A stretch of 42,087 nucleotides of DNA from a virus (IMGVR_UViG_2565956712_000007), one strand, 5' to 3'; shown: positions 3,494-27,462, counted from the stretch's first letter. Notes: a model not told the origin generated them from the letters alone. Numbers and translations: made by a program.

Positions 3494-6469
3494 TTACATT
3501 GACATTAATATAAACATGGCTAATTCATCATAGCGAATTCCGTATCGTCCTCCTGCTTTTTTTACAAGAATCATATTTCCTGTTTTATATTGAGAATAAA
3601 TTTTCTCACCTGTATCAGGATCTGTGCTCTCTTCAGTTATCACCTCTTCATCCCATACGTCAGGCCATTCATCGTAACACCAAAAAGCATATTGCTCAGG
3701 ATTTAAACCATGCTTTCTAAGAATATCCCCTACGGTTTGAGCGCCAACGCCAAAATGATACCTGGACGACTCAATTCCTTTGTGATTAATTGAGTCATTA
3801 AATTTAAATTTATAGATGACTGACTTTATTTCAATAGCGGCATCACGCTCTGCATTAAGAATATCATATCTTGTTTTAAGAGTTTCATCTGATGTATTGA
3901 TTGACCCGGTTCCTGCATAGATAACAGAGCATCTGTTTGATGGCTGTCCAATAGCTTTAACATTATCATCAACAGGAGCTATTTTATTAGCATCTGCCAA
4001 CCACCAGTCTGTTCCATCAGCGTGACCGACTCTTACTCTTATCCCACTTCTAATATTTAAACTTCCGGTATTACTCTGTAAATTACAATCTCCTGACGTT
4101 GGTCCAAGCAGTACAGTTTTACCAACACCACATACTACTCTGGCATTTCCTTTTTGTGATACGAGTCTTGACTCACCTCCCGACTGCTCAGGAAGAGATT
4201 TATGGTCTATAAATGCATCGCGGGGGTTAAATACACCGTCTCCAGAATTATATCTTCCTCCTGTATAGTTGTTAAATACAGGACCCCAGTCAACGCCATT
4301 GCCTTCAGAGCACCCGACCATTCTAAGCACTCGTGTATTCCCTGCTGCATATGGTAATGAGCTTGTTGATTGCCGGGAAGCTATCATACGTGCTCCATAA
4401 CCAATAGCATTACCACCATTTATAGTTACATATGCTTGCTGGCTTTCGAAATATGTACTGTAAAAGTTCATATTTCCACAGTCATGCAGATGAATAAGAA
4501 CATCATCCCATCCCTGAATGGTTCCTGCATGTACCTGTACACCGCGAACTGGTTCCCCTGAAACCTCCATACACTCTGATGGCCGGCTGAATGGCTGAGA
4601 CAGGTATTGCGATGTGGCAAGCAGATGTGTGTGGTGATACAGGCTGGTAATGTAGCAATCGAAAAATTGCGTTCCCGCCATACCAAAGTTATCTATGTCA
4701 TTTCGCCGTATAGTAGAACCTACTGTTGCCTCAGAAGCGTTAGACACTCCAGTAAATACTAACTTATCACCGGATACGGATAATCCTGAATAAGTGAAAT
4801 TCCTGCCTCCAGATCTTAAAACCCCGGACGTTTCGAAGGTGTGGCTTGCTGACCATGGGATTTCGATGGTGCTGGACGTTACCGCTGTAATTCGGAATAC
4901 ATCATGGGCGCGGATCGAAACCCCCTTGAATCCCTGGAATCTACAGTGATAATAGTTTTCATCCTCGCCCTGAGCAGCCAGCGTGCCAGATACAGGAATG
5001 TTCGTTTTTAAAAGTGCCGTCTTGCGCCAGTATCCAACCACCTGCAAATTGCGGTATTCATTGCCAAAAGACGCACGTGACCAAATACCTACATCCCACT
5101 CATCGCCAAGACCGGTATTTGCAATGTCTTTATAACCATCCAGACCATTGAAATATGGAACAATACGAAAGTTCTCAAGGCGAACACATCCTGTCTCTGG
5201 CATCAATATTGCGGCAGAGAATGGTTTAAGCGTGGCTCTTGTAGCCCCATTAGCATCACCGTTAGTAAAATCCAATAAATCATATGATGACGCAGGTGCC
5301 GTTGTTGTATACGGGTCTTCGGAAGATGGATTAGAAACCACACCACCACTAACATCCATATTAGAAACACAATCTACAGTATATTTTTTATTTCCTACCC
5401 CGTACATCAGGAATGTGGTCCCTGTGGTAATATCAGGAGCAAATGTTGCAGTATATCCAGAGACCCATTTGCCCACACCAAGACCAATTATCCCACCACC
5501 AGAAACAGGTGTTAACGTATCCGTTATTACATACGCATTATCAGTACCATAAATAACCTTTCCTGTGTTAAGGGCAGCTTGCCACGCGGCCCAGTCTATT
5601 GACTGAGATAATGAGTCAACAAAAGGATATAAGGATTTTGCTTCAGAAATTGAAGAAAACCTCTCAGATAATGGATGATATTTCCCATCCCCAATTGCTC
5701 CGAATTGTTTTACATTTAAGAAAAGAGCATTGTTTTCATGCTGAGTTATAGTTACAGCCCCGGCAAATGGCTGCCTTACACCAATTAATGCATCACCTTT
5801 TCCTTCTCCTGCGCTAGATAATTGCAGAAGAACATCTGCGGCACTGCCAGAAGGCACAGGTACACCTATAGGTTTACCATTGACGATACCAATGACAGTT
5901 TCTTCCAGTAAATGAACTGGAGGAAGTGGTTCAATAAAATTATCTGGAACCCGTAATGTCCTGTTAATATTCACATTAACAATATTATCAACATAATTCT
6001 TTGTAGCTGCATCTTGAGGCTTGGAAGGATCGCGCAAATTGCGGATGTAATTATTCAAAGCATCGTAATAGTTTGCCACAAATGATGGTTTGCGCAGCGC
6101 CAGGCTAAACCAACTGCGGACTTGCTGTATCAGCATCGTCAGCTTATCTAACGCGTCTTCATGCACCTCAGCGAAAAACTTTCCCTGATTTCGCAGATCA
6201 GTTTCCTGCGTAACCGGTAGCTCTCGTGATATAGAAATCTGATAACCGTTAGCTAACGCCTTCGACAGAATTACATTACCGCCATTATATCCACCAGCCC
6301 CTGTGACAGTGTAATCAGTATCAAGAGCCAGCACAGCGATATTTTCGTCAAGGTCAACCACCTGTACTGCCAGATCAGATTCCTTGAAAACCCTAAAGGT
6401 ATACGGAAATGATGTCGTAACGCCGTTACCTGTGTATTCGTTGTGGTCAACTTCGGTTGAGACCGTCAT
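3494..6469 (-). CDS. Tailspike / tail fibre (991 aa): T7-type N-terminal attachment domain, central depolymerase-like body, C-terminal chaperone-like domain
   Basis: N-terminus GNGVTTSFPYTF...LDTDYTV pattern; C-terminal ...YKFKFND...GIRYDELAMFIL; GGAGA RBS. Confidence 0.8.
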   Translation of the reverse strand: MTVSTEVDHNEYTGNGVTTSFPYTFRVFKESDLAVQVVDLDENIAVLALDTDYTVTGAGGYNGGNVILSKALANGYQISISRELPVTQETDLRNQGKFFAEVHEDALDKLTMLIQQVRSWFSLALRKPSFVANYYDALNNYIRNLRDPSKPQDAATKNYVDNIVNVNINRTLRVPDNFIEPLPPVHLLEETVIGIVNGKPIGVPVPSGSAADVLLQLSSAGEGKGDALIGVRQPFAGAVTITQHENNALFLNVKQFGAIGDGKYHPLSERFSSISEAKSLYPFVDSLSQSIDWAAWQAALNTGKVIYGTDNAYVITDTLTPVSGGGIIGLGVGKWVSGYTATFAPDITTGTTFLMYGVGNKKYTVDCVSNMDVSGGVVSNPSSEDPYTTTAPASSYDLLDFTNGDANGATRATLKPFSAAILMPETGCVRLENFRIVPYFNGLDGYKDIANTGLGDEWDVGIWSRASFGNEYRNLQVVGYWRKTALLKTNIPVSGTLAAQGEDENYYHCRFQGFKGVSIRAHDVFRITAVTSSTIEIPWSASHTFETSGVLRSGGRNFTYSGLSVSGDKLVFTGVSNASEATVGSTIRRNDIDNFGMAGTQFFDCYITSLYHHTHLLATSQYLSQPFSRPSECMEVSGEPVRGVQVHAGTIQGWDDVLIHLHDCGNMNFYSTYFESQQAYVTINGGNAIGYGARMIASRQSTSSLPYAAGNTRVLRMVGCSEGNGVDWGPVFNNYTGGRYNSGDGVFNPRDAFIDHKSLPEQSGGESRLVSQKGNARVVCGVGKTVLLGPTSGDCNLQSNTGSLNIRSGIRVRVGHADGTDWWLADANKIAPVDDNVKAIGQPSNRCSVIYAGTGSINTSDETLKTRYDILNAERDAAIEIKSVIYKFKFNDSINHKGIESSRYHFGVGAQTVGDILRKHGLNPEQYAFWCYDEWPDVWDEEVITEESTDPDTGEKIYSQYKTGNMILVKKAGGRYGIRYDELAMFILMSM

Positions 6470-7915: not shown

Positions 7916-8068
7916 ATGTGTAAAGCGCACCTATTCTATGGTGGGCTGTGTGGGGGCACCGAAAGGTGCGCCGGGTCCTTTGTAGCCGGTTACGCCAACC
8001 CTGCACAGTTCACCACCAACCGATTGGCGTCGGTAGTGGTGATTAACCTAACTACAAAGGTGATCACT

Positions 8069-8755
8069 ATGACTGCTAACGTAACCCCATCTGTTTTTCA
8101 TTTTGAATCAGAAGCAACCATTCGAGCCATTGTTATTGATGGAAATCCTTGGTTTGTTGCCAAAGACGTTATTAAAGCTCTTCAACTGACAAACCCCACT
8201 ATGTCAATAAAATCTCTTGATGATGATGAAAGGGCTAAATTTAACTTAGGCCGTCAAGGCGAAACCAATATTATCAACGAGTCAGGCCTCTACACACTGA
8301 TCCTCCGCTGCCGCGATGCGGTGACACCAGGCACTATCCCATACCGCTTTCGTAAATGGGTTACAGGTGAGGTTCTTCCTCAGATCCGCCGCACCGGAAG
8401 TTACATTAAAAACTCGCTCCCGCAAGAAGAACGCATAAAGATGGTTGCCGACCAGGTAGCCAACGCCACGGCGTCAGCAGTAATGCAGGCAATGAAGGTA
8501 GAGAACAAAACCTACAGCGCCCCACTGAAGCCCGGCTACCGCAGCCTGATTCATTCGCCGTCTGGTGTTCTCGGCCTGACAGAGAACTCACTGCTGATGA
8601 ATCTGCTGAACCAGTTACAGGACGACGGGCACGACGTATCGGGCGCGGCGGCGGAGCTGACCACCATGTTCTGCTACATCGTCGGTGTGAGCAAATGCCT
8701 GCGTGATATCCAGACCCACGCGGAGTACATCAACGACAAGGCAGGGTTCTTCTGA
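8069..8755 (+). CDS. Antirepressor, Bro-N-type N-terminal domain (Ant1)
   Basis: N-terminus FHFESEATIRAIVIDGNPWFVAKDV; RBS AAGGTGA; C-terminal 77 aa near-identical to Ant2. Track start 7916 is likely too far upstream. Confidence 0.8.
   Translation: MTANVTPSVFHFESEATIRAIVIDGNPWFVAKDVIKALQLTNPTMSIKSLDDDERAKFNLGRQGETNIINESGLYTLILRCRDAVTPGTIPYRFRKWVTGEVLPQIRRTGSYIKNSLPQEERIKMVADQVANATASAVMQAMKVENKTYSAPLKPGYRSLIHSPSGVLGLTENSLLMNLLNQLQDDGHDVSGAAAELTTMFCYIVGVSKCLRDIQTHAEYINDKAGFF
8522..8755 (+). repeat. Inverted repeat arm A (234 bp, about 96% identical to arm B)
   Basis: Encodes C-terminal 77 aa of Ant1; about 10 mismatches to the reverse complement of 9618..9851. Confidence 0.85.
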
Positions 8756-8825
8756 CGGCGGCGGCGCAGGGACGTGCCTTTAAATAATTCTGTACAGATT
8801 GCAGACTGGGGGTGAATAGCGTACT

Positions 8826-9041: not shown

Positions 9042-9482
9042 TTGAAGTTTAACATTAGAATATCTAATAGTTTTCTAAATGGGGAAAGCAACACCCCTTT
9101 CGCTGTAGACGGACCTTTCCTTACTGACGATGAAATAAAAATCATACAAAGGTTTTTAGAAGATGTTGCCAATGGAAGGGCGCTTGTTGGAAAAAACAAG
9201 CCATCGTGGGTTAATGATAACCATGATAAAATTCCCGGCTCAGACAATTATGAGCAAGAGAATTATTGGCATTATCATTGTGGGCCAACATGGTATCCAA
9301 ACACATTTAAGAATTATACCATTAACTTAAATTTCAACCCTGGCGGAATGCATTCTAATGAATGCATTCATTATGCAAAAAATGATAATGAAATTGTCGT
9401 TGTTGGATTTTCAAGAGAACACATACCTTTCCTTTCATCAGATGGAAACGACAATCCGCTTTTTTATGATGAAGAAGAATAG
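9042..9482 (+). CDS. AT-rich hypothetical protein (146 aa, TTG start); moron, function unknown
   Basis: AGGAG RBS 6 nt before TTG; visibly AT-rich versus flanks; strong terminator after stop. Confidence 0.5.
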   Translation: MKFNIRISNSFLNGESNTPFAVDGPFLTDDEIKIIQRFLEDVANGRALVGKNKPSWVNDNHDKIPGSDNYEQENYWHYHCGPTWYPNTFKNYTINLNFNPGGMHSNECIHYAKNDNEIVVVGFSREHIPFLSSDGNDNPLFYDEEE

Positions 9483-9579: not shown

Positions 9580-9617
9580 GATAGTTCAGTTTTGCACATC
9601 CCTGTGCCGCCGTTCTG

Positions 9618-9851
9618 TCAGAAGAACCCTGCCTTGTCGTTGATGTACTCCGCGTGCGTCTGGATATCACGCAGGCATTTGCTCACACCAACGATGTAGC
9701 AGAACATGGTTGTCAGCTCCGCCGCCGCGCCCGATACATCATGCCCGTCTTCCTGTAACTGGTTCAGCAGATTCATCAGCAGTGAGTGCTCCGTCAGGCC
9801 GAGAACACCAGACGGAGAATGAATCAGGCTGCGGTAGCCGGGCTTCAGCGG
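9618..9851 (-). repeat. Inverted repeat arm B (234 bp)
   Basis: Encodes C-terminal 77 aa of Ant2; reverse complement matches 8522..8755. Confidence 0.85.
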
Positions 9852-10556
9852 ATAACCATAACATTTTGTCTGTGTTTTAATTGCCTCACGAAGCGCATCT
9901 AACATCTTGACTGCCACTTCATCATTCTCTGATGCAGATCCAGCAGGGAGATACTCCCCTTCAAGCGGAACCCGAGCAACAAGAGACAACGCTTCGGCGA
10001 ATTGATCTTCATCAATTTCTTTGTACGAACAGCCAAAATGAGATTTCAGTGACGACCACATGGTGATCATCGCCTTAGCCTGTTTTTCTTTTGGCAGAGA
10101 CTGACCGCGACTCATGACGAGTTGTTTAATGGCTTCCTGCTGTTCAGTGGTGATTTTACCCGGCAACGCCTTTTTAGCTTTGCGTGGGTTAACTACATGG
10201 CCTTTAGTCCAGTAATCGTAGAGCACATCGTCACACTCTTCCTGATACTGGATTACCTTGTCGCGGATTTCAGGGCGTACTTTGTTTGGACTGATGCTGT
10301 TCAACCAAGCTGCCAATTTTCGTAAAGCCATACAAATCATGGCTTGCACCCCACCGGCAGAAGGTATGGTGATTTCCACCATACCCTTCGAGAAGCGTTG
10401 AGAAATCTTCTTATGTTGAGATTTCCAGTCTAGCCCCATTCCCTCAACGATAGGTTTCATTGGGGTATACGGTTCACCGTTGTGATTGACAACATAAAGC
10501 TCTGCGCCGTGGAATGGCACGTTGATAGTAGATACCGCTGTTGCTATACTCGTCAT
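9618..10556 (-). CDS. Antirepressor, P22 Ant-type N-terminal domain (Ant2)
   Basis: N-terminus VPFHGAELYVVNHNGEPYTPMKPIVEGMGLDW; downstream of arc-like gene as in P22 immI. Confidence 0.8.
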   Translation of the reverse strand: MTSIATAVSTINVPFHGAELYVVNHNGEPYTPMKPIVEGMGLDWKSQHKKISQRFSKGMVEITIPSAGGVQAMICMALRKLAAWLNSISPNKVRPEIRDKVIQYQEECDDVLYDYWTKGHVVNPRKAKKALPGKITTEQQEAIKQLVMSRGQSLPKEKQAKAMITMWSSLKSHFGCSYKEIDEDQFAEALSLVARVPLEGEYLPAGSASENDEVAVKMLDALREAIKTQTKCYGYPLKPGYRSLIHSPSGVLGLTEHSLLMNLLNQLQEDGHDVSGAAAELTTMFCYIVGVSKCLRDIQTHAEYINDKAGFF

Positions 10557-10628
10557 GTCGTTAATTCCTATACGTAGTTTTACGATACTGAAGCCCTGAC
10601 GGTCTGGCCACCGTTGGGCTTCGCTGTT

Positions 10629-10796
10629 TTATGCCACGCTATTCTTCTCACCAGTGAGTCCATACACTTTCCTCAGCTGATAGATAATCTCTGTATTGAA
10701 CTTTCGGCATTCTTTTTCGCCATTTCTTTCAATAGCTAACTTCACATCGTCCGGAAAACGAACTCGTCGTTGACACATCTCTTTTGCTTTTTGCAT
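10629..10796 (-). CDS. Arc-like ribbon-helix-helix repressor (56 aa)
   Basis: RVRFPDDVKLAIERNGEK..FNTEIIYQL resembles P22 Arc; AAGGAG RBS 7 nt before the ATG at 10796. Confidence 0.7.
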   Translation of the reverse strand: MQKAKEMCQRRVRFPDDVKLAIERNGEKECRKFNTEIIYQLRKVYGLTGEKNSVA

Positions 10797-10810
10797 TTCA
10801 TATCTCCTTA

Positions 10811-10825
10811 GCCCCACGGTGGGGC
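10811..10825. promoter_or_regulatory. 15-bp palindrome GCCCCAC-G-GTGGGGC, candidate Arc/Mnt operator
   Basis: Perfect 7-bp arms; between divergent arc-like and mnt-like genes, beside a TTGACA hexamer on the minus strand. Confidence 0.5.
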
Positions 10826-10916
10826 AAAACAATTGTCACACCGTGCGTCATTGATGTCAAGCACACGGTGAGGCATACTTCAATCATTGCAAGTAACTCA
10901 ATATTTGGTGAAGAAC

Positions 10917-11348
10917 ATGAGCAGAGAAGATCCACAACTAAGGATCAGACTTCCCGTTGAAGTAAAAGAAAAAATAGAAATTTCTGCAAAAGCCAATAAG
11001 CGATCAATGAACGCTGAAATAGTACAACGTCTTGACACCAGCTTTCTGAAAGATATTCATGAAGATGACGTAATTTCTGCTTATGAAGCAAAAATTATTG
11101 CAAACAATGCACGGCATGAAATATCAAATATTATTTTCAAAAGAACCTTTAATGAAATTAATAAGAAAATAACACTTGGACATACAAGTTTTTATATAAA
11201 CCTTAATGACCTTGAACTGGAATCACTTGCAGATAATGATTACCAGATCATCTTTGAAAAAACATTTAATAAGCTCAATGAACTAGGTTACATCATCTGT
11301 GAAAACTCATGGGATGCAGATGGTTTTGGAATTGAAATACCTGAATAG
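10917..11348 (+). CDS. Mnt-like RHH repressor fused to an AT-rich C-terminal extension
   Basis: N-terminus DPQLRIRLPVEVKEKIEISAKANKRSMNAEIVQRL matches P22 Mnt; about 60 aa longer than Mnt. Confidence 0.65.
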   Translation: MSREDPQLRIRLPVEVKEKIEISAKANKRSMNAEIVQRLDTSFLKDIHEDDVISAYEAKIIANNARHEISNIIFKRTFNEINKKITLGHTSFYINLNDLELESLADNDYQIIFEKTFNKLNELGYIICENSWDADGFGIEIPE

Positions 11349-11390
11349 GAAGAACAAAAGGCGTGTACATATTACACGTCTTTAATACAA

Positions 11391-12002
11391 TTGAAAAACG
11401 CCACATTACTGATGTATGTTACAACAAGGAGCGATATTTTGAAAACCATATCTATATTAAAGGTTGCATTAGGCGTCGCTATTATTTTGACTCTCTCAAT
11501 ATTGTTTTATTTTTACCACAAAAAAAATGCTATTGCTCTTGATGGTCACGCGGCAAACTCATTTTTCTCAGAGTACATAGTGCCGCTATCAGGAAGCGGT
11601 ATAACAAATAAATATACTGACTATGACATCAAATATGGAATTGATGATGGGGAGACTATTGTATTACATGTAATCATTAAAAACCTAATGACAGTAAATA
11701 AAAATACAGACTTCAACGATAAAAATACAATACATCACAACAACAGCAAAACATTAATTTCTTATAGTAGCAACATCTATACGGATAAATACCTAAAATA
11801 CATCTCAGAAGATACAATAAAAGCAACCAGCGAAAAGTTAAAAAACATATATTGTGCATCCGGCAGTTTTCACAAATTATCGCCGCAGGAGCGTTTATTC
11901 TACGAAGCAAGAAAACAACGTAAGTCAATAATATTACATTATTATGCTGATTCAGGGGAGTCACTCATATTTAATATTGGGGTTTCCCCTGAATCATGCT
12001 AA
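11391..12002 (+). CDS. AT-rich membrane-anchored hypothetical protein; candidate superinfection-exclusion moron
   Basis: N-terminal TM helix (ILKVALGVAIILTLSILFYFY); between ejection-protein gene and mnt-like gene; start uncertain. Confidence 0.45.
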   Translation: MKNATLLMYVTTRSDILKTISILKVALGVAIILTLSILFYFYHKKNAIALDGHAANSFFSEYIVPLSGSGITNKYTDYDIKYGIDDGETIVLHVIIKNLMTVNKNTDFNDKNTIHHNNSKTLISYSSNIYTDKYLKYISEDTIKATSEKLKNIYCASGSFHKLSPQERLFYEARKQRKSIILHYYADSGESLIFNIGVSPESC

Positions 12003-12013
12003 AGGCGTTTAAC

Positions 12014-15000
12014 TCACCGCATCACCGGATCCACCTGGTTTATTAGTGGCGCAATCCAGAACAGGTTATTGCCTGGTATCAGAGTTCGGACATTATGCGC
12101 AATACGATCACCGGCATCACCATTCAACACTCCTGCGGTCACATCAATGATGCTATCCGCAAGACCAAATGACGGTCCGAATAGAGATCCTACGAATCCA
12201 CGACTGGCATACCTAGACTGTGTGCCAGTGCCAAATAAAGCCCCCAGCCCAACAGCACCACCAGTAGCCTTTTCAGCCATGTTGTTATATTCTATCAATG
12301 GCCCAAGAATACCGGATCTATCTATACCCTCAAGCACCAGCTTCTCTGGTGACCAGTCAACATTTTTCCCTTTCGATGCTTCTTTTAGCGCATAGACCAG
12401 TGAGCCAAGAGCAATCTGAAATGCAGTGCCATAATAAAATTGCGCAGTTCCTTCCTGTAACCCACCAAGTAGCGCACGGTTGTATGAAGCCGTTGTGAAT
12501 GATTTAAACTGAAATATCGTTCGCCCCATTGGAGTACTCGCCCATAAAGGTGTGTCACCAATACCGGGGGTGATGATAGTGTTATTAACGTCTTTCAGAA
12601 CCGCTGACTGGAATACTCCGGCAACGTACTGATCGTCCCATTTATCAAAGTTACCAATGTGCCATCCATCAATTACCTCACCATGTTTCTCGAACTCACT
12701 GCGAATACGCGCAGCCATATTGTCGTTGATACCGAGTTTTGCCATGCGACGTGCAGAAAACGCACCGGACAAAATACCGTCTGACGTGAGCATTCCGTTC
12801 ATGGATTTGTTTATGTCATTAAATCGATCCATGAGTGTCAGCTTGCCGAAGGCATCAGTAATTCGCTCCATTCCTGCTTCGACTGCTGTTGTCCTGGAAG
12901 AACTGTCAACAAGATCACCAATTGCACGAGAACGTGAATGTAGTACAGCTTCCAATCCAATCCCCATCTTCAACATATCTTCTTTGCTGGCCTTAAATGC
13001 CGGTGATTGGGATATCTGAGAAGCATAGCCTTTCATGGTGTTACGGAAACCATTAACCATAACCCCTCTGGCCAGATCTGGAATAGCTGATACTGTCATT
13101 CCACCGAGTTTGGTCGTGAAGTTCACATCCCGCAGAAAAGCGCCAGCACGAACAAAAAACGAAGACGGATCATCAGGCATCCCATATGTACCAACAAGAC
13201 GATCGCGTAATGCTGTTATGTCTCTGAGATCATTTGCTCTTGATTTTGAAAGTCTGGACTGTTCTTTCCGTAATTCCTTTTCGTACTTTCGCATTAATGA
13301 ATCGAGTTTACCCTGAGGAACAACTTCACCATTGCTCTCATAACGTGCTTTCAGATTTGCCACACTTTCGTCATATTTCGCCTTTATTTTTTCAGGCACT
13401 TCCCGTAACAGACTGTCATATTCGTCCTCAATTAATTGCAGACGCTCAGTCATAGTTCGTTTGCCAAATGTTCTCGTCAACTCAATTTCTGCTGCCGCTT
13501 CACGGATATGACGTTGCAGCACGTAATTCACATCACTTTCAAGATAATCCCTGATAAGACTATCAGGAACATTTAATGTTCTTTCTTTCGTACTACCTGC
13601 GGCTTTTACAGAAAATACGCTGACAAAATCCTGTGGAACCTTAGCACCAGTAATTTTATTAATTACGATATCCGCTGCAATTTCAGCATCCTCAGGATCC
13701 AGTGTTTTATTTCCTCTCGACCACCAGTCAACCAAAATACGTCGAAATTTATCGCGTTCACTGATTATTTTTCCAACTTTATATATGCGTGGGAAATAGC
13801 TTGCCTGGCCTAATGCTTTCAGTTCTTCATCTGGCGGCAATAAACCAAGCTTTTGCATTTCAACTTTCACCCGATTTAATACAGTTCGCATCGCCTGCGC
13901 CGTTTCCTGAACAACAGGATTAGCATGCACATCACCGCTTCGCATAGCATTCCCAACCTGCTGACGAAATGAATCAAAACTCATGTCACCACCATCAGCT
14001 TTATACTTTGCGTATGCCTGTTTATTTCCGACAACAACAGCAGCTTCTTCACGCTGCCATCCACGTGTACGGGTTTCTACAGCTACCGGTGTTTCAATCC
14101 CCCTTTCATTTCCTTTAAGGGTGAAATTATTTTCGGCTAACTCCAGCGTTGTTTTTCGCACCGTCTTGGACGGAGACTCCATTAACCTTGTCAAAGGAGT
14201 AAGATAGCTCCCTGCTTTCCATGCAGCCTTTCCAACCCACCCACCGGAAACAGGGGTTAAATCATCCAGAGTCGCTGTATCAATTTTCATAGCACCAACA
14301 CTACCACCATCGGAAAGCGAAGCGGCAGCCCTGTCAGTCACTGATGTAATGCTCATATTATCAAGAGCATCAGCAACCTCACGTGTGGCTGCAGCCCGGA
14401 CGGATGGCGAAAGCGCAACACCAGCACTGGCAAACACGCCGCTCATCATCGCACCCGCTGCAACGTGAGCGGCACTTTCACCCCATGAGCGTGTTATTTG
14501 CTGATTATTCAGTACAACCTCGCTTAATGCTGTACCGGCAGCACCAATCGCAATCTGTGAGCCAATACGCGCCAGTGCCCCTCCTTGAGCACCGGGAATA
14601 AACATTGACGCAACAGTAACCGGATCCATTCCCGCAGCAATACTGGCAAGGGTTCCAACTACGCCAGCATCAGACAATAAACGTCTGTCTTCATTTTCAT
14701 CATCTATCTGCTGCTTAATCCACGCCGTTTCCTCTGGCGATCGGGAATCTGCAAATTTCGCCCCCCAGTATTCATAACCGTGCAACTCATTTTTATCAGC
14801 ATATGGGTTATAACCCTCGACCGGTTCAAACTGTCTGGCTGGGCGGAAAAAACCAGACAGAATATTGTTCTGTCGCATTGCAGCCCCCCATACGGAAGGC
14901 TCAGGTGGCAATGGCTCAGGATTAGCCCCTTCCGGAAGGGCAACATCAAACCCAGTTTGTTCCGGCAAAACATTACCTGACGGGATCAGTCCGTTATTAA

Positions 15001-15028
15001 GATCTTCAGCTTGTGCATAAACTGGCAT
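12014..15028 (-). CDS. Large internal virion / ejection protein (1004 aa)
   Basis: Long late-operon ORF after the other internal core proteins; Gly/Ala-rich segments. Confidence 0.7.
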   Translation of the reverse strand: MPVYAQAEDLNNGLIPSGNVLPEQTGFDVALPEGANPEPLPPEPSVWGAAMRQNNILSGFFRPARQFEPVEGYNPYADKNELHGYEYWGAKFADSRSPEETAWIKQQIDDENEDRRLLSDAGVVGTLASIAAGMDPVTVASMFIPGAQGGALARIGSQIAIGAAGTALSEVVLNNQQITRSWGESAAHVAAGAMMSGVFASAGVALSPSVRAAATREVADALDNMSITSVTDRAAASLSDGGSVGAMKIDTATLDDLTPVSGGWVGKAAWKAGSYLTPLTRLMESPSKTVRKTTLELAENNFTLKGNERGIETPVAVETRTRGWQREEAAVVVGNKQAYAKYKADGGDMSFDSFRQQVGNAMRSGDVHANPVVQETAQAMRTVLNRVKVEMQKLGLLPPDEELKALGQASYFPRIYKVGKIISERDKFRRILVDWWSRGNKTLDPEDAEIAADIVINKITGAKVPQDFVSVFSVKAAGSTKERTLNVPDSLIRDYLESDVNYVLQRHIREAAAEIELTRTFGKRTMTERLQLIEDEYDSLLREVPEKIKAKYDESVANLKARYESNGEVVPQGKLDSLMRKYEKELRKEQSRLSKSRANDLRDITALRDRLVGTYGMPDDPSSFFVRAGAFLRDVNFTTKLGGMTVSAIPDLARGVMVNGFRNTMKGYASQISQSPAFKASKEDMLKMGIGLEAVLHSRSRAIGDLVDSSSRTTAVEAGMERITDAFGKLTLMDRFNDINKSMNGMLTSDGILSGAFSARRMAKLGINDNMAARIRSEFEKHGEVIDGWHIGNFDKWDDQYVAGVFQSAVLKDVNNTIITPGIGDTPLWASTPMGRTIFQFKSFTTASYNRALLGGLQEGTAQFYYGTAFQIALGSLVYALKEASKGKNVDWSPEKLVLEGIDRSGILGPLIEYNNMAEKATGGAVGLGALFGTGTQSRYASRGFVGSLFGPSFGLADSIIDVTAGVLNGDAGDRIAHNVRTLIPGNNLFWIAPLINQVDPVMR

Positions 15029-17745
15029 TATTTAGATCCCCACGAAAAGTAATCTTTAAATTTGTCCATACGTTCGTTATGCAGGCGCTGATACTGCTCA
15101 TCCAGAGCGCGATGCTTGTCTTTGAAGTTTCGTATAGCCTGTCCACGCATAATTTCTTCCTGCTCGTACTGCTCCCGTTCCTGCTGCATTTTCTTATAAG
15201 GTTCCCAATCTTCTAGTGATGGTTCCCAACGCATAGGACGCCCATGTTTGTTATAAAACGGCTGGACCCGATCGATGCCATTTTCATCCTTAGTTCTTAC
15301 CATAATGGCGTAATCACCATTACGGGGTGTTAACACGTCAGGGGTTATGAATAATTCTCCATTAATACGACTCTCAGGGGTTTTTGTCTCAACTACAGGA
15401 GCATTACCTGACGTGATCCCAAGCAACGTCGGACTGGTTGTTATAATCTCTTTGCGCTCACCGTACATCAGCCGTTCTTTTTCAGCTTTCCACTGCGCCG
15501 CCTGCCAGCCTGACGGCCCATATTGATAAAGCGCCTCCGGTGCATATTTCATAAACTGCGCTTCTCCGTTAACCTCGCTGATACTCCAAGTGCGGGCTAT
15601 CTGCTGGTTGGTCATTTGCTTCGCTACGTCAGCGTTACCACCAGCAACGCGGTAGTTAATGTCATACATCGTCTGATAGTCATTACGGAATCTAGCTGCT
15701 TCCGGCGTCTGGTCATCCGCAGACGGATCCCAACGGAACCACTGCGCCATATTGCTGACAGCAGAATTCATCGCCTTGCTGCGATCATTTTTGTACTCTT
15801 TTGAACTCTGCGTTGATGCCAATTGAGCTTTAAGTGCATCGGTCTGGTTGTACGTAAGGTTCTGCGCCTGCTCGATAGCCGCATCAGCAGACATGCCAGA
15901 ATCAGTTAGTTGCTTAACAGTCAGATAAAAACCCTGCATATCCTTCGGCATATTTCCAATAGATGCATTGTCTGTTTCATATAACCGACTAAACAGTTCC
16001 GCCGCATTTTTAACCACTTCCTGATTGCTGGATCGGGATACTGCTGAAAGCTGCGTGATGACCTGCGAAGGCATTATGCCAGTCTGAGCCACAAGCCGAA
16101 CAACCCCATCATGAGTGGAGACATCATTAATACGAAAGTTCTGCGCCATTTCTGTGTAATCAGCAGCTTTCTGCATTGACTTGTTGCTTGGGTCTAATTT
16201 TTCACCTATTGTCAGCGCCTCATTGAATCTGCGTGAATCCCGTTGCGCCTGAATTGCTTCATTTGATCTCTGAAGCAATGCAGACAATTTTCCGTAAGCA
16301 TCGAGTTTTAACGCATAGTGAGGATCGTTAACCTCAGGCTTCACTTTCTGCATTTCTTCTTGCTGCTGAGAAGGAGGCAAATACTGAATTGCCTGGAATA
16401 TTCTCGCGTTATCAATCGCTATATCCAGTTGATTGATTATTTTATCTGCGTTTTTTCCATACCCCCTGATGATGGTCTCCTGAGCCGGTATATAATCTGG
16501 AACCTCACCGTTATATAGCTGGGCCATGGTGTTATTAATAGCTGGCTCAAGCTGTTCTAATATTAACTTCCTTTGCTTTTCTATCTGACTATTAGCAAGG
16601 TTATCTATTTGATAAATAGTCAGTGGATCCATTCCAGTTTTATTTTTTCTATATCGGGAAAGCCACCCTTGTGTTTCTGATGGAAGATTTCGGATAAATT
16701 CTTCTTCTGATATTTCACCTTTACGTGGATCACCGACTTTGGCGATCAGTTTATCCACGTTACCCATCCCCCAGTTATATGCTGCTCCGGTCAATATTTC
16801 TGAGCCGTACTTACCATACAGTTGATTTACATAGTCACTGGCAAGCATTTCATGCTGTTGTTCGTCCGTAGGGTTGTATTCAACGCCACGTTTGGCCGCC
16901 AGTTCTTTCCCTGTGCCCGGCATTAACTGGTATTTCCCCTGGGCCCTCTCTCCAGAAGATGTTTTCGGTCCTTCAAGAATACTACCATCAGGATTAAAAT
17001 GACGATCACCTGATTCAACAAGGCGTATGGCACGCATGTCCATGCCTCCAGAATCATTTTTCTGAAACTGACCATTTAACCATCCTTCCGGATTAGCAGC
17101 GGCATAATTCTTCGCCCGCATTTCTGTGGCACTGCGATCATCACTTTCTATTTCTTCCAGAATGCGTTCTTGTGACCATCCCCTGGCTGCTCCATATCTG
17201 GCAATGGCTACCATTCTGGAATTTCTGGCTAAAGTGGCAGTTTGCGGGTCATTCCAGGCATCCGCTTCATTTTGTATCCATAATTTTCTCGTTGCCTGAT
17301 ATTGCTCATCTTCATAGGCATTTGTCTGCCCTATCTCATGTCTGAGAACTCCAGTACTGAACTGAATTTTCTGTGTTCTGGCTTGTTGCAAAAACATATT
17401 TCTTGCTGCTTCATCAGTCAATGAAGCAGCTATTTCTTCCACATCCTGATCAAATCCAGATATGTACTCTTGCCCCTTACCAATCGCATTTTTGCCTTGT
17501 TGTGCATAAAAACCGGTTTGAGGGTTATAAAGACGTTCATTGCTGCGCTGATTAAGCTGAAGGATGGCATCCTGAGACAATGCAACATTCGCTTTCTGCC
17601 TGGCTTCACCATATGCCACCGCATACTGATCTGCGACATTCGCCAGCACCTGACCTGCTTGAGGAACATCGAAGGTTTGAAAACCACCGGTTTGCACACC
17701 ACGACTTTGCACCTGGCGTCCGGATGTAGTAGGAACAACAGGCAT
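15028..17745 (-). CDS. Internal virion protein with lytic transglycosylase domain (905 aa)
   Basis: SLT-like block RLVESGDRHFNPDG...AQGKYQLMPGTG...YNWGMGNV. Confidence 0.8.
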   Translation of the reverse strand: MPVVPTTSGRQVQSRGVQTGGFQTFDVPQAGQVLANVADQYAVAYGEARQKANVALSQDAILQLNQRSNERLYNPQTGFYAQQGKNAIGKGQEYISGFDQDVEEIAASLTDEAARNMFLQQARTQKIQFSTGVLRHEIGQTNAYEDEQYQATRKLWIQNEADAWNDPQTATLARNSRMVAIARYGAARGWSQERILEEIESDDRSATEMRAKNYAAANPEGWLNGQFQKNDSGGMDMRAIRLVESGDRHFNPDGSILEGPKTSSGERAQGKYQLMPGTGKELAAKRGVEYNPTDEQQHEMLASDYVNQLYGKYGSEILTGAAYNWGMGNVDKLIAKVGDPRKGEISEEEFIRNLPSETQGWLSRYRKNKTGMDPLTIYQIDNLANSQIEKQRKLILEQLEPAINNTMAQLYNGEVPDYIPAQETIIRGYGKNADKIINQLDIAIDNARIFQAIQYLPPSQQQEEMQKVKPEVNDPHYALKLDAYGKLSALLQRSNEAIQAQRDSRRFNEALTIGEKLDPSNKSMQKAADYTEMAQNFRINDVSTHDGVVRLVAQTGIMPSQVITQLSAVSRSSNQEVVKNAAELFSRLYETDNASIGNMPKDMQGFYLTVKQLTDSGMSADAAIEQAQNLTYNQTDALKAQLASTQSSKEYKNDRSKAMNSAVSNMAQWFRWDPSADDQTPEAARFRNDYQTMYDINYRVAGGNADVAKQMTNQQIARTWSISEVNGEAQFMKYAPEALYQYGPSGWQAAQWKAEKERLMYGERKEIITTSPTLLGITSGNAPVVETKTPESRINGELFITPDVLTPRNGDYAIMVRTKDENGIDRVQPFYNKHGRPMRWEPSLEDWEPYKKMQQEREQYEQEEIMRGQAIRNFKDKHRALDEQYQRLHNERMDKFKDYFSWGSK

Positions 17746-27385: not shown

Positions 27386-27462
27386 GTGGCATTAGCTCAG
27401 TTGGACAGAGCAACCGCCTTCTAAGCGGTTGGTCGCAGGTTCGAATCCTGCATGCCACGCCA
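27386..27462 (+). tRNA. tRNA-Arg (anticodon UCU)
   Basis: Hand-folded cloverleaf: 7-bp acceptor GTGGCAT/ATGCCAC, D-stem GCTC/GAGC, anticodon stem ACCGC/GCGGT with loop CTTCTAA, T-arm GCAGG-TTCGAAT-CCTGC, discriminator G, encoded CCA. Confidence 0.85.

Follow-up and report, generated by a model that had tools for sequence, protein, structure and literature searches.

An AT-rich prophage gene in the slot of P22 sieA encodes a predicted periplasm-facing protein, a candidate superinfection-exclusion factor

What does a temperate phage gain from a small, AT-rich gene wedged between its last ejection-protein gene and an mnt-like gene, at the place where P22 carries sieA? The gene lies on the plus strand at 11391–12002 of a stretch of 42,087 nt (IMGVR_UViG_2565956712_000007; the whole stretch is referred to here as the window), which is a segment of an Escherichia coli chromosome containing the host genes yfgH and yfgI followed by a complete prophage. 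Over the 1.8 kb compared (window 10500–12300), this prophage has 99.2% identity to Escherichia phage TL-2011b, and segment 10850–12010 shows 100% identity to the prophage of strain AHB29. Our analysis points, with a probability of about 0.45, to a prophage-expressed, periplasm-facing factor of the superinfection-exclusion type that would act on the ejection conduit. Exclusion at DNA entry is the best supported function because the gene occupies the P22 sieA slot and is absolutely linked to the gene for the last ejection protein. We infer this function from position, location and evolutionary pattern, and with it expression in the lysogen, a binding partner and an exclusion phenotype.

In P22, genes 20 and 16 are read in one direction, sieA, orf59a and mnt in the other, and arc, ant and 9 again in the first. 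Reading the window along its minus strand gives a core protein with a lytic transglycosylase (SLT) domain (905 amino acids (aa)), a 1004-aa core protein, then the open reading frame (ORF) and the mnt-like gene in the opposite orientation, and then the arc-like gene and ant. The ORF and the gene for the 1004-aa protein are convergent, with their stop codons 11 nt apart. Gene order and orientation match those of P22 16, sieA–mnt and arc–ant, and the equivalence to the sieA slot proposed in an earlier note on this DNA is upheld. Slot, antisense orientation and proximity to mnt are shared with P22 SieA (types A–C in P22-like prophages). SieA belongs to P22-like phages, whereas the virion and ejectosome of the window prophage are of the BPP-1/epsilon15 type; its virion module contains a Bbp16/Bbp19-type capsid, an epsilon15-type staple protein, a core protein of the T7 gp14 family and the SLT core protein.

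The linkage to the ejection gene holds at every locus with a family member. In 39 of 39 such loci, drawn from E. coli, Klebsiella, Salmonella, Citrobacter, Providencia, Proteus and one metagenome contig, the gene is convergent with that for the last large ejection protein (937–1133 aa) and the stop codons are 0–30 nt apart. The upstream neighbour varies. It is a same-strand Mnt/Arc-like gene in E. coli and Klebsiella, with a 20-nt overlap in Klebsiella; a divergent gene for a secreted 175–180-aa protein in Providencia and Proteus; and, in Salmonella and Citrobacter, genes for a 113-aa protein and the large terminase. The metagenome contig has the 113-aa/terminase pair and an extra gene for a 98-aa protein with three transmembrane (TM) helices adjoining the family member. 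In Salmonella, Citrobacter and the metagenome contig, the family member is on the strand opposite all neighbours within the late region. The secreted protein of Providencia and Proteus is AT-rich and has a CxxC motif (L004 7352–7879 and L007 7339–7881, both on the minus strand), and the 98-aa gene of the metagenome locus (L008 3223–3519, minus strand) is at the place of the secreted-protein gene.

The family is almost confined to prophages. A member was found in one of 50,697 GenBank phage records, TL-2011b, and the plasmid search gave no copies. Podophages obtained as free particles whose ejection proteins are homologous were negative: the family profile found no member in EC.W1-9 or Vibrio phage 284E43-1, and Kp4865-1 and other Vibrio phages gave none in protein-to-DNA searches, the only ones applied to them. 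Among complete E. coli genomes that have the 3′ end of the ejection gene, 36 of 44 have the gene together with the Mnt homologue, and it is intact in all 36. In three of the remaining genomes, which were inspected, homology ends exactly at the ejection-gene stop. Two of these (L045 and L047, both 3948–4475, plus strand) carry instead an AT-rich gene for a 175-aa single-TM protein, WP_000451652.1, in the same convergent orientation, and the third (L046, 4180–4476, minus strand) an AT-rich gene for a 98-aa two-TM protein, WP_001555166.1. These replacements are unrelated to the window protein, and the last ejection protein of the prophages that carry them is 96–99% identical. Where the ejection-gene cluster ends, the prophages have what behaves as a hotspot for envelope-protein cargo. 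The gene has the anatomy of a moron: it forms an island within the late region, antisense to it, of distinct composition, replaceable and almost restricted to prophages.

Two further observations concern the distribution. About 36 other complete E. coli genomes hold just a 45-nt, 100% identical copy of the ejection-gene 3′ end (12020–12064) in unannotated DNA, possibly what is left of a prophage since lost or replaced. A Salmonella prophage (L040 773–2319) is integrated beside pipB2-like and pipA genes, and its family member (P0030) occurs in 456 collection blocks.

The gene changes faster than its surroundings. Its copies in the E. coli clade differ by as many as 7 non-synonymous and 2 synonymous changes and by a 7-aa indel, compared with 23 non-synonymous and 74 synonymous changes in the pooled neighbours (Fisher p = 0.002). 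The Mnt homologue shows 0–1 non-synonymous and 3–4 synonymous changes within E. coli, and the ratio of non-synonymous to synonymous polymorphism (pN/pS) is ~0.05–0.15 for both ejection proteins and Ant. Between E. coli and Klebsiella/Salmonella/Citrobacter, the protein retains 48–52% identity and the neighbouring ejection protein 70–79%. Faster amino-acid change fits a gene engaged in an arms race or an accessory gene.

The protein appears to be directed to the envelope. It begins MKTISILK, followed by a 19-aa uncharged segment, and both AlphaFold models contain a hydrophobic helix at residues 2–28/29, in agreement with the N-terminal TM helix noted earlier. The topology prediction that the earlier note had suggested gave this single N-terminal hydrophobic segment, followed by a globular α/β domain. 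All 28 family members have an N-flank of +2 to +4, a hydrophobic segment of 15–25 aa and a mostly acidic C-flank, features that fit Sec export in the N-in/C-out orientation, with the C-terminal domain predicted to lie outside the cytoplasm. Members of the Salmonella/Citrobacter type have short signal peptides with AFA/S or TFA/T cleavage sites (the slash marks the cut) and are without the domain's first strand and helix. Since some clades have cleavable signal peptides, the family-wide property is periplasmic location, and membrane anchoring is clade-specific. The description as a membrane protein thus stands for the window protein in the sense of envelope targeting by a signal-anchor, but not for the family as a whole. 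The window protein has no N-terminal Cys, and so no lipobox, and is not a lipoprotein. Most non-E. coli members (for example P0006, P0012, P0013 and P0025) have a conserved Cys-x-Gly within the signal/anchor segment with a bulky residue at −1; this is not a canonical lipobox, and its Cys is absent from the window protein. One UniRef entry of the family is labelled 'Lipoprotein'.

To the extent that a model can indicate it, the exported domain resembles a pilotin. The AlphaFold2 model built from a 15-sequence alignment had a predicted local distance difference test score (pLDDT) of 75, and the one from 28 sequences a pLDDT of 80.3 and a predicted template modelling score of 0.71; in both, the core exceeds a pLDDT of 90. 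The low-confidence insertion at residues 85–114 is restricted to the Escherichia, Klebsiella, Salmonella and Citrobacter clades and in E. coli contains the 7-aa indel polymorphism, with an allele of 180 aa (P0001/L029). The best structural match is the periplasmic pilotin-type fold of PA3611 and AspS, a moderate one; AspS/EpsS/YghG (GspS-beta) and Pseudomonas PA3611 (PF16549, T2SSS_2) were the top matches by two independent methods. AspS has the topology α1, β1–3, α2, α3, β4–5, α4, and PA3611 an extra helix after β3 (PMC3542185). The order of elements in our model is identical, from α1 to α4, with an extra element after β3 as in PA3611, and the model has the five-stranded sheet flanked by helices that is typical of this fold. 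In AspS a conserved disulfide joins α2 (Cys74) to the C-terminal helix (PMC3542185). AspS, PA3611 and YghG share this bond between a C-terminal Cys and a Cys of α2, and the Cys spacing pattern of E. coli YghG is the same as that of the window protein, in which Cys139 ends the α2-equivalent helix and Cys187 is the C-terminal residue. The invariant cysteine pair fits a periplasmic disulfide, and Cys139–Cys187 is a putative one. Like the predicted location of the window protein, that of AspS and PA3611 is periplasmic.

The likeness has limits. PF16549 matched none of the 28 members at E up to 1 and found YghG itself at 1.3e-16, and hhalign of the family profile against YghG gave a probability of 0.5%. 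AspS and YghG are lipoproteins and PA3611 has a plain signal peptide, in contrast to the signal-anchor without lipobox of the window protein. The window domain measures ~155 aa against ~100–110 aa for pilotins, with an N-terminal β-strand/helix extension and the 30-aa clade insertion. No secretion-system genes are near the family gene in any of the 39 loci, all of which are prophage late regions. A search of viral structures in BFVD returned nothing significant. Because sequence homology is undetectable, we read the pilotin likeness as one of fold, without assigning the protein to the family.

The gene itself is real and not a chance ORF, given homologues at 27–50% identity with invariant residues and a confident fold prediction. 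The uninterrupted ORF reported earlier at 11391–12002 is present and encodes 203 aa counted from its first TTG, but coding likely begins at a second TTG at 11439, which gives 187 aa. This start is preferred because three lines of evidence agree. A ribosome-binding site (RBS), AAGGAG, lies at 11426–11431, 7 nt 5′ of TTG 11439; PGAP and RefSeq annotate a 564-nt gene whose coordinates coincide with it; and the match to PHROG 8033 covers residues 17–203 of the long ORF (E 2.4e-127; profile positions 1–187 of 187). No homologue or profile covers the 16 codons of 11391–11438, which are probably an untranslated leader. The 187-aa protein is identical to TL-2011b gp39 and WP_021524917.1, each named 'hypothetical protein', and was found on 264 contigs.

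At 0.33, the GC content of the gene is below that of the window (0.48) and of the ejection-protein gene next to it (0.47); the gene belongs to a low-GC block at ~10.85–12.0 kb that also takes in the upstream Mnt homologue. Family members range from 0.29 to 0.38 and their adjacent genes from 0.39 to 0.57, the member being AT-richer than its neighbour in seven of seven clades. Being found in every host, AT-richness characterises the family and does not indicate recent import; of the visibly foreign composition proposed before, the low GC stands, but recent acquisition does not follow from it.

The gene had also been described as belonging to no recognisable family. This holds for Pfam, NCBIfam and PADLOC, in which no model matched the 28 members consistently (Pfam at E up to 1), but the protein belongs to PHROG 8033 and to a clade across Enterobacterales. 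PHROG 8033 is a cluster of close relatives without functional annotation, as opposed to the wider family described here, at 27–50% identity. A word-index search found near-identical E. coli proteins only, and an exhaustive HMMER scan of 1.84 billion representatives gave 17 matches, several at 27–48% identity. Follow-up searches added Providencia/Proteus, Klebsiella/Raoultella and Salmonella/Citrobacter groups, and the homology search that had been recommended thus uncovered a family spanning prophages of Escherichia, Klebsiella, Salmonella, Citrobacter, Providencia and Proteus. Its members are all named 'hypothetical protein' in databases. Nine residues are invariant in the 28-sequence alignment: Y46, P49, Y62, Y138, C139, Y168, Y169, P184 and C187. 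A match to TIR/Thoeris (ThsB; E 0.005) was confined to one of 28 members, with no TIR-like match to the model, and was rejected; weak Pfam matches to Imm42, ParE, Anthrax_toxA and others, one member each, are attributed to chance. A profile search against PDB sequences gave a marginal, repeat-summed match to iota-carbonic anhydrase (domain E-values 2.7–8.5) that was not used. Several family entries (P0003, P0007, P0009 and P0019) are frameshifted at poly-A runs, the window's own A-run being at 11840–11846, and the frameshift occurs at the same position, between KLK and N, in two different clades. Misassembly of homopolymers in AT-rich DNA is the most likely cause, and slippage a less likely one.

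Similarity of position does not extend to homology with SieA. SieA, an integral protein of the inner membrane, has three predicted TM helices (four in types B and C) and a cytoplasmic FxRYPxEAxxFNK motif near its C-terminus; it blocks injection by superinfecting phage through the gp20/gp16 conduit, and escape mutations lie in the C-terminal portions of the ejection proteins gp16 and gp20 (PMC10883804). SieA and the window protein are alike in being prophage-borne, envelope-located, short (162–164 and 187 aa) and present in some related phages only (PMC10883804). They differ in that SieA has three TM helices and the window protein one signal-anchor followed by a ~155-aa periplasmic domain with a Cys pair. 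The 187-aa sequence contains no RYP or FNK. We rejected descent from SieA (type A, P22, compared): BLASTP gave E 0.34 over the TM segment only, and hhalign a probability of 0.3%.

Other exclusion proteins offer a parallel in location. T4 Imm and Sp (Spackle), HK97 gp15, TP-J34 Ltp and T5 Llp/phi80 Cor are small, periplasm- or surface-exposed phage proteins that bind the penetration protein of a superinfecting phage, or its receptor, and so halt the phage at or before DNA entry. Their targets are tail lysozymes, tape-measure proteins and outer-membrane receptors of myo- and siphoviruses, not the podovirus ejectosome. No sequence kinship links them to the window protein, and structure searches with its model returned none of them.

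The mechanism we propose is that of an accessory protein sent to the periplasm, where the E. coli form would be tethered to the inner membrane through an uncleaved signal-anchor and the Salmonella/Citrobacter form would be freed by its cleavable signal peptide. The exported part is predicted to be a compact, disulfide-stabilised domain of the PA3611/AspS type, a fold whose known members clamp a peptide segment of a partner protein. Transcription would oppose that of the late operon; in Klebsiella and E. coli it would include the Mnt-type repressor or take place just downstream of it, so that the protein may be made in the lysogen. Stationed at the periplasmic face of the inner membrane, it could bind ejection (internal virion) proteins of a superinfecting phage with the same ejectosome type and keep the trans-envelope DNA conduit from assembling or opening. 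This would be exclusion at DNA entry, analogous but not homologous to that by SieA. A more specific version has a lower probability: temperate podophages may have recruited a pilotin-fold protein as a new class of injection blocker, whose groove captures a terminal segment of the ejected gp15/gp16-type core proteins so that no tunnel forms.

Several points weigh against the exclusion reading. No similarity to known exclusion or defence proteins was found with PADLOC or in the SieA comparisons. Promoter and terminator scans in four clades stayed at chance level, no better than shuffled sequence, and AT-rich genes of enterobacteria are often silenced by H-NS. The high ratio of non-synonymous to synonymous change (N/S) can equally reflect relaxed constraint. 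Between Providencia and Proteus the family protein is 78% identical and the adjacent ejection protein 44.5%; this decoupling means linkage without strict co-divergence, which weakens the case for a co-evolving pair and allows for a host target. The decoupling also favours the main rival, a lysogenic-conversion factor that would stabilise, mislocalise or block a host envelope component such as a secretin, an outer-membrane protein or a cell-wall enzyme, changing fitness, virulence or surface, with phage resistance just a side effect. The family tree tracks host groups more than the ejection protein, the top structural matches AspS and EpsS are host periplasmic secretin binders, as PA3611 is proposed to be, and moron architecture is common to non-exclusion genes: lambda bor and lom are late-region morons with non-exclusion functions. 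We nevertheless regard a conversion factor as unlikely, since absolute linkage to the ejection-gene 3′ end across six genera and three genome architectures would be unexpected, and the missing lipobox of the window protein, the lack of association with secretion genes and the unmatched Pfam T2SSS_2 speak against it too. An exclusion factor with another target is less probable again. T4 Sp inhibits the gp5 lysozyme, and by analogy the periplasmic domain could prevent cutting of the cell wall by inhibiting the SLT domain that the ejected 905-aa core protein carries. Known periplasmic inhibitors of lysozymes and transglycosylases are likewise periplasmic with a disulfide, putative here, and at every locus the module includes a gene for an SLT-domain core protein; yet the gene adjoins the last ejection protein, which is not the SLT protein, and structure searches gave no match to Ivy, MliC, PliC or Spackle. 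We rate this improbable.

Tight linkage to a virion gene, and the role of pilotins as assembly chaperones, would also suit a protein that helps its own phage in the lytic cycle, as a periplasmic factor for DNA entry, lysis timing or release. Such a role is slightly less probable still: the gene and the late operon use different strands, related phages found as free particles lack the gene, a periplasmic protein could not meet cytoplasmic virion precursors, and replacement by unrelated genes beside near-identical ejection proteins makes it dispensable for the virion. That the ORF is decaying and retained by hitch-hiking is suggested by an N/S ratio near 0.8–0.9 within E. coli and by frameshifted database entries (P0002–P0004, P0009 and P0019). 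The frameshifts, however, occur in single contigs, at A-runs, and could stem from assembly, invariant residues and motifs are kept down to 27–30% identity across genera, the fold prediction is confident, and no complete E. coli genome with the gene has a broken copy, all of which leaves decay very improbable. A toxin–antitoxin or abortive-infection pair with the upstream ribbon-helix-helix (RHH) protein has the least claim and is rejected on context. A same-strand RHH gene directly upstream is a common antitoxin layout, and the Klebsiella genes overlap, but this RHH protein is a Mnt homologue within an immI region of the P22 type, an upstream RHH gene is lacking for most family members, the product is exported, and PADLOC and toxin matches were inconsistent (ParE, Imm42 and ThsB in one of 28 members each).

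Coordinates of the gene, its neighbours and the elements around it are collected in Table 1.

Table 1. Features of the locus in window coordinates, with the evidence for each
Feature	Position	Strand	Evidence
Coding sequence of the 187-aa protein	11439..12002	+	TTG start, TAA stop 12000–12002; PGAP/RefSeq, PHROG 8033
In-frame 5′ extension, 16 codons	11391..11438	+	Carries RBS AAGGAG 11426–11431
Predicted signal-anchor/TM helix, residues 2–28	11442..11522	+	AlphaFold helix 2–28/29; charge and hydrophobicity analysis
Predicted periplasmic α/β domain, residues 30–187	11526..11999	+	PA3611/AspS-like predicted fold
Low-confidence insertion, residues 85–114	11691..11780	+	pLDDT below 50 at 85–114 and 88–105; alignment gaps
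Cys139 codon	11853..11855	+	Invariant 28/28; ends long helix 124–138
Cys187 codon, C-terminal residue	11997..11999	+	Invariant 28/28; putative disulfide partner of Cys139
Hairpin, 24-nt arms, inside ORF 3′ end	11948..11996	.	DSGE and SPES codons; repeat search
Palindrome CGTGTACATATTACACG	11362..11378	.	Between Mnt homologue and ORF; consensus scan, chance-level
Mnt homologue	10917..11348	+	Pfam Arc 1.2e-14; PHROG 1388; tblastn to P22-group Mnt; PGAP start
Divergent control region between arc-like and mnt-like genes	10797..10916	.	Promoter-like sites
Arc-like small repressor ORF	10629..10832	-	PHROG Arc-like matches; TL-2011b 'Arc-like repressor'; PGAP 10629–10796
Antirepressor Ant (P22_AR_N domain)	9618..10556	-	Pfam 2.5e-45
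Last large internal virion/ejection protein, 1004 aa	12014..15028	-	PHROG 342/16310; synteny in 39 loci
905-aa internal virion protein with SLT domain	15028..17745	-	PGAP name; Pfam SLT in homologous loci

The gene directly upstream is, by its sequence, a true relative of Mnt. In tblastn it is 30–38% identical to Mnt of P22-group phages, and it combines an Arc/Mnt RHH N-terminus with a ~90-aa C-terminal extension; it is AT-rich and on the same strand as the ORF. The homologue has 143 aa compared with 83 aa for P22 Mnt, the surplus being the AT-rich C-terminal region (PHROG 1388), and its Klebsiella counterpart has only the RHH part in common with it.

In the divergent region before the Mnt homologue, a consensus scan found a minus-strand promoter-like TTGACA-17-GACAAT, whose −35 overlaps a weak plus-strand TTGATG-17-CATACT (8/12, below the scan threshold and read by eye). 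On the minus strand a T-rich run follows the palindrome that lies between Mnt homologue and ORF, giving it the look of a terminator; the palindrome also overlaps a weak plus-strand promoter-like site. The hairpin within the 3′ end of the gene has 12 perfect pairs and a folding energy of −27.5 kcal/mol (z −5.3). It is partly retained through wobble-position changes in the Klebsiella, Salmonella, Citrobacter and metagenome versions and is missing from those of Providencia and Proteus. Because the convergent stops are so close, it might act on both converging transcripts. The strain of a published prophage transcriptome, LF82 (PMC9928086), has no related prophage.

Beyond the Arc-like gene, two convergent antirepressor genes, one with a Bro-N domain (7916–8755, plus strand) and the other Ant, have differing N-terminal domains and the same C-terminal domain of ~85 aa. 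A 270-nt inverted repeat, 90% complementary, joins 8487–8756 and 9617–9886, and an AT-rich 146-aa ORF of PHROG 5954 (9042–9482) lies between the two genes. This region could be a recombination or inversion cassette; TL-2011b has other genes there, among them one for a YafO toxin. A tRNA-Arg(tct) gene (27386–27462) is located within the prophage, between genes of the portal and terminase region, and is annotated in AHB29 too.

If exclusion is confirmed, the protein would be a second, unrelated answer to the task of P22 SieA, that of stopping DNA delivery by short-tailed phage after adsorption, and one given from the periplasm rather than from within the membrane. It would also supply a small soluble domain for trapping and studying ejection-protein intermediates, and a defence marker in hundreds to thousands of Escherichia, Klebsiella and Salmonella assemblies, with a bearing on host range in phage therapy. 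The end of the ejection-gene cluster would then be a general hotspot for envelope-acting cargo in temperate podophages. Should the groove of a pilotin-like fold indeed capture ejected core proteins, exclusion specificity would be encoded by a gene physically joined to that for an ejection protein, and the periplasmic assembly of podovirus ejectosomes would gain an experimental handle. Were the target instead a host secretin or another envelope protein, the family would be an unusual case of a phage copying the pilotin fold.

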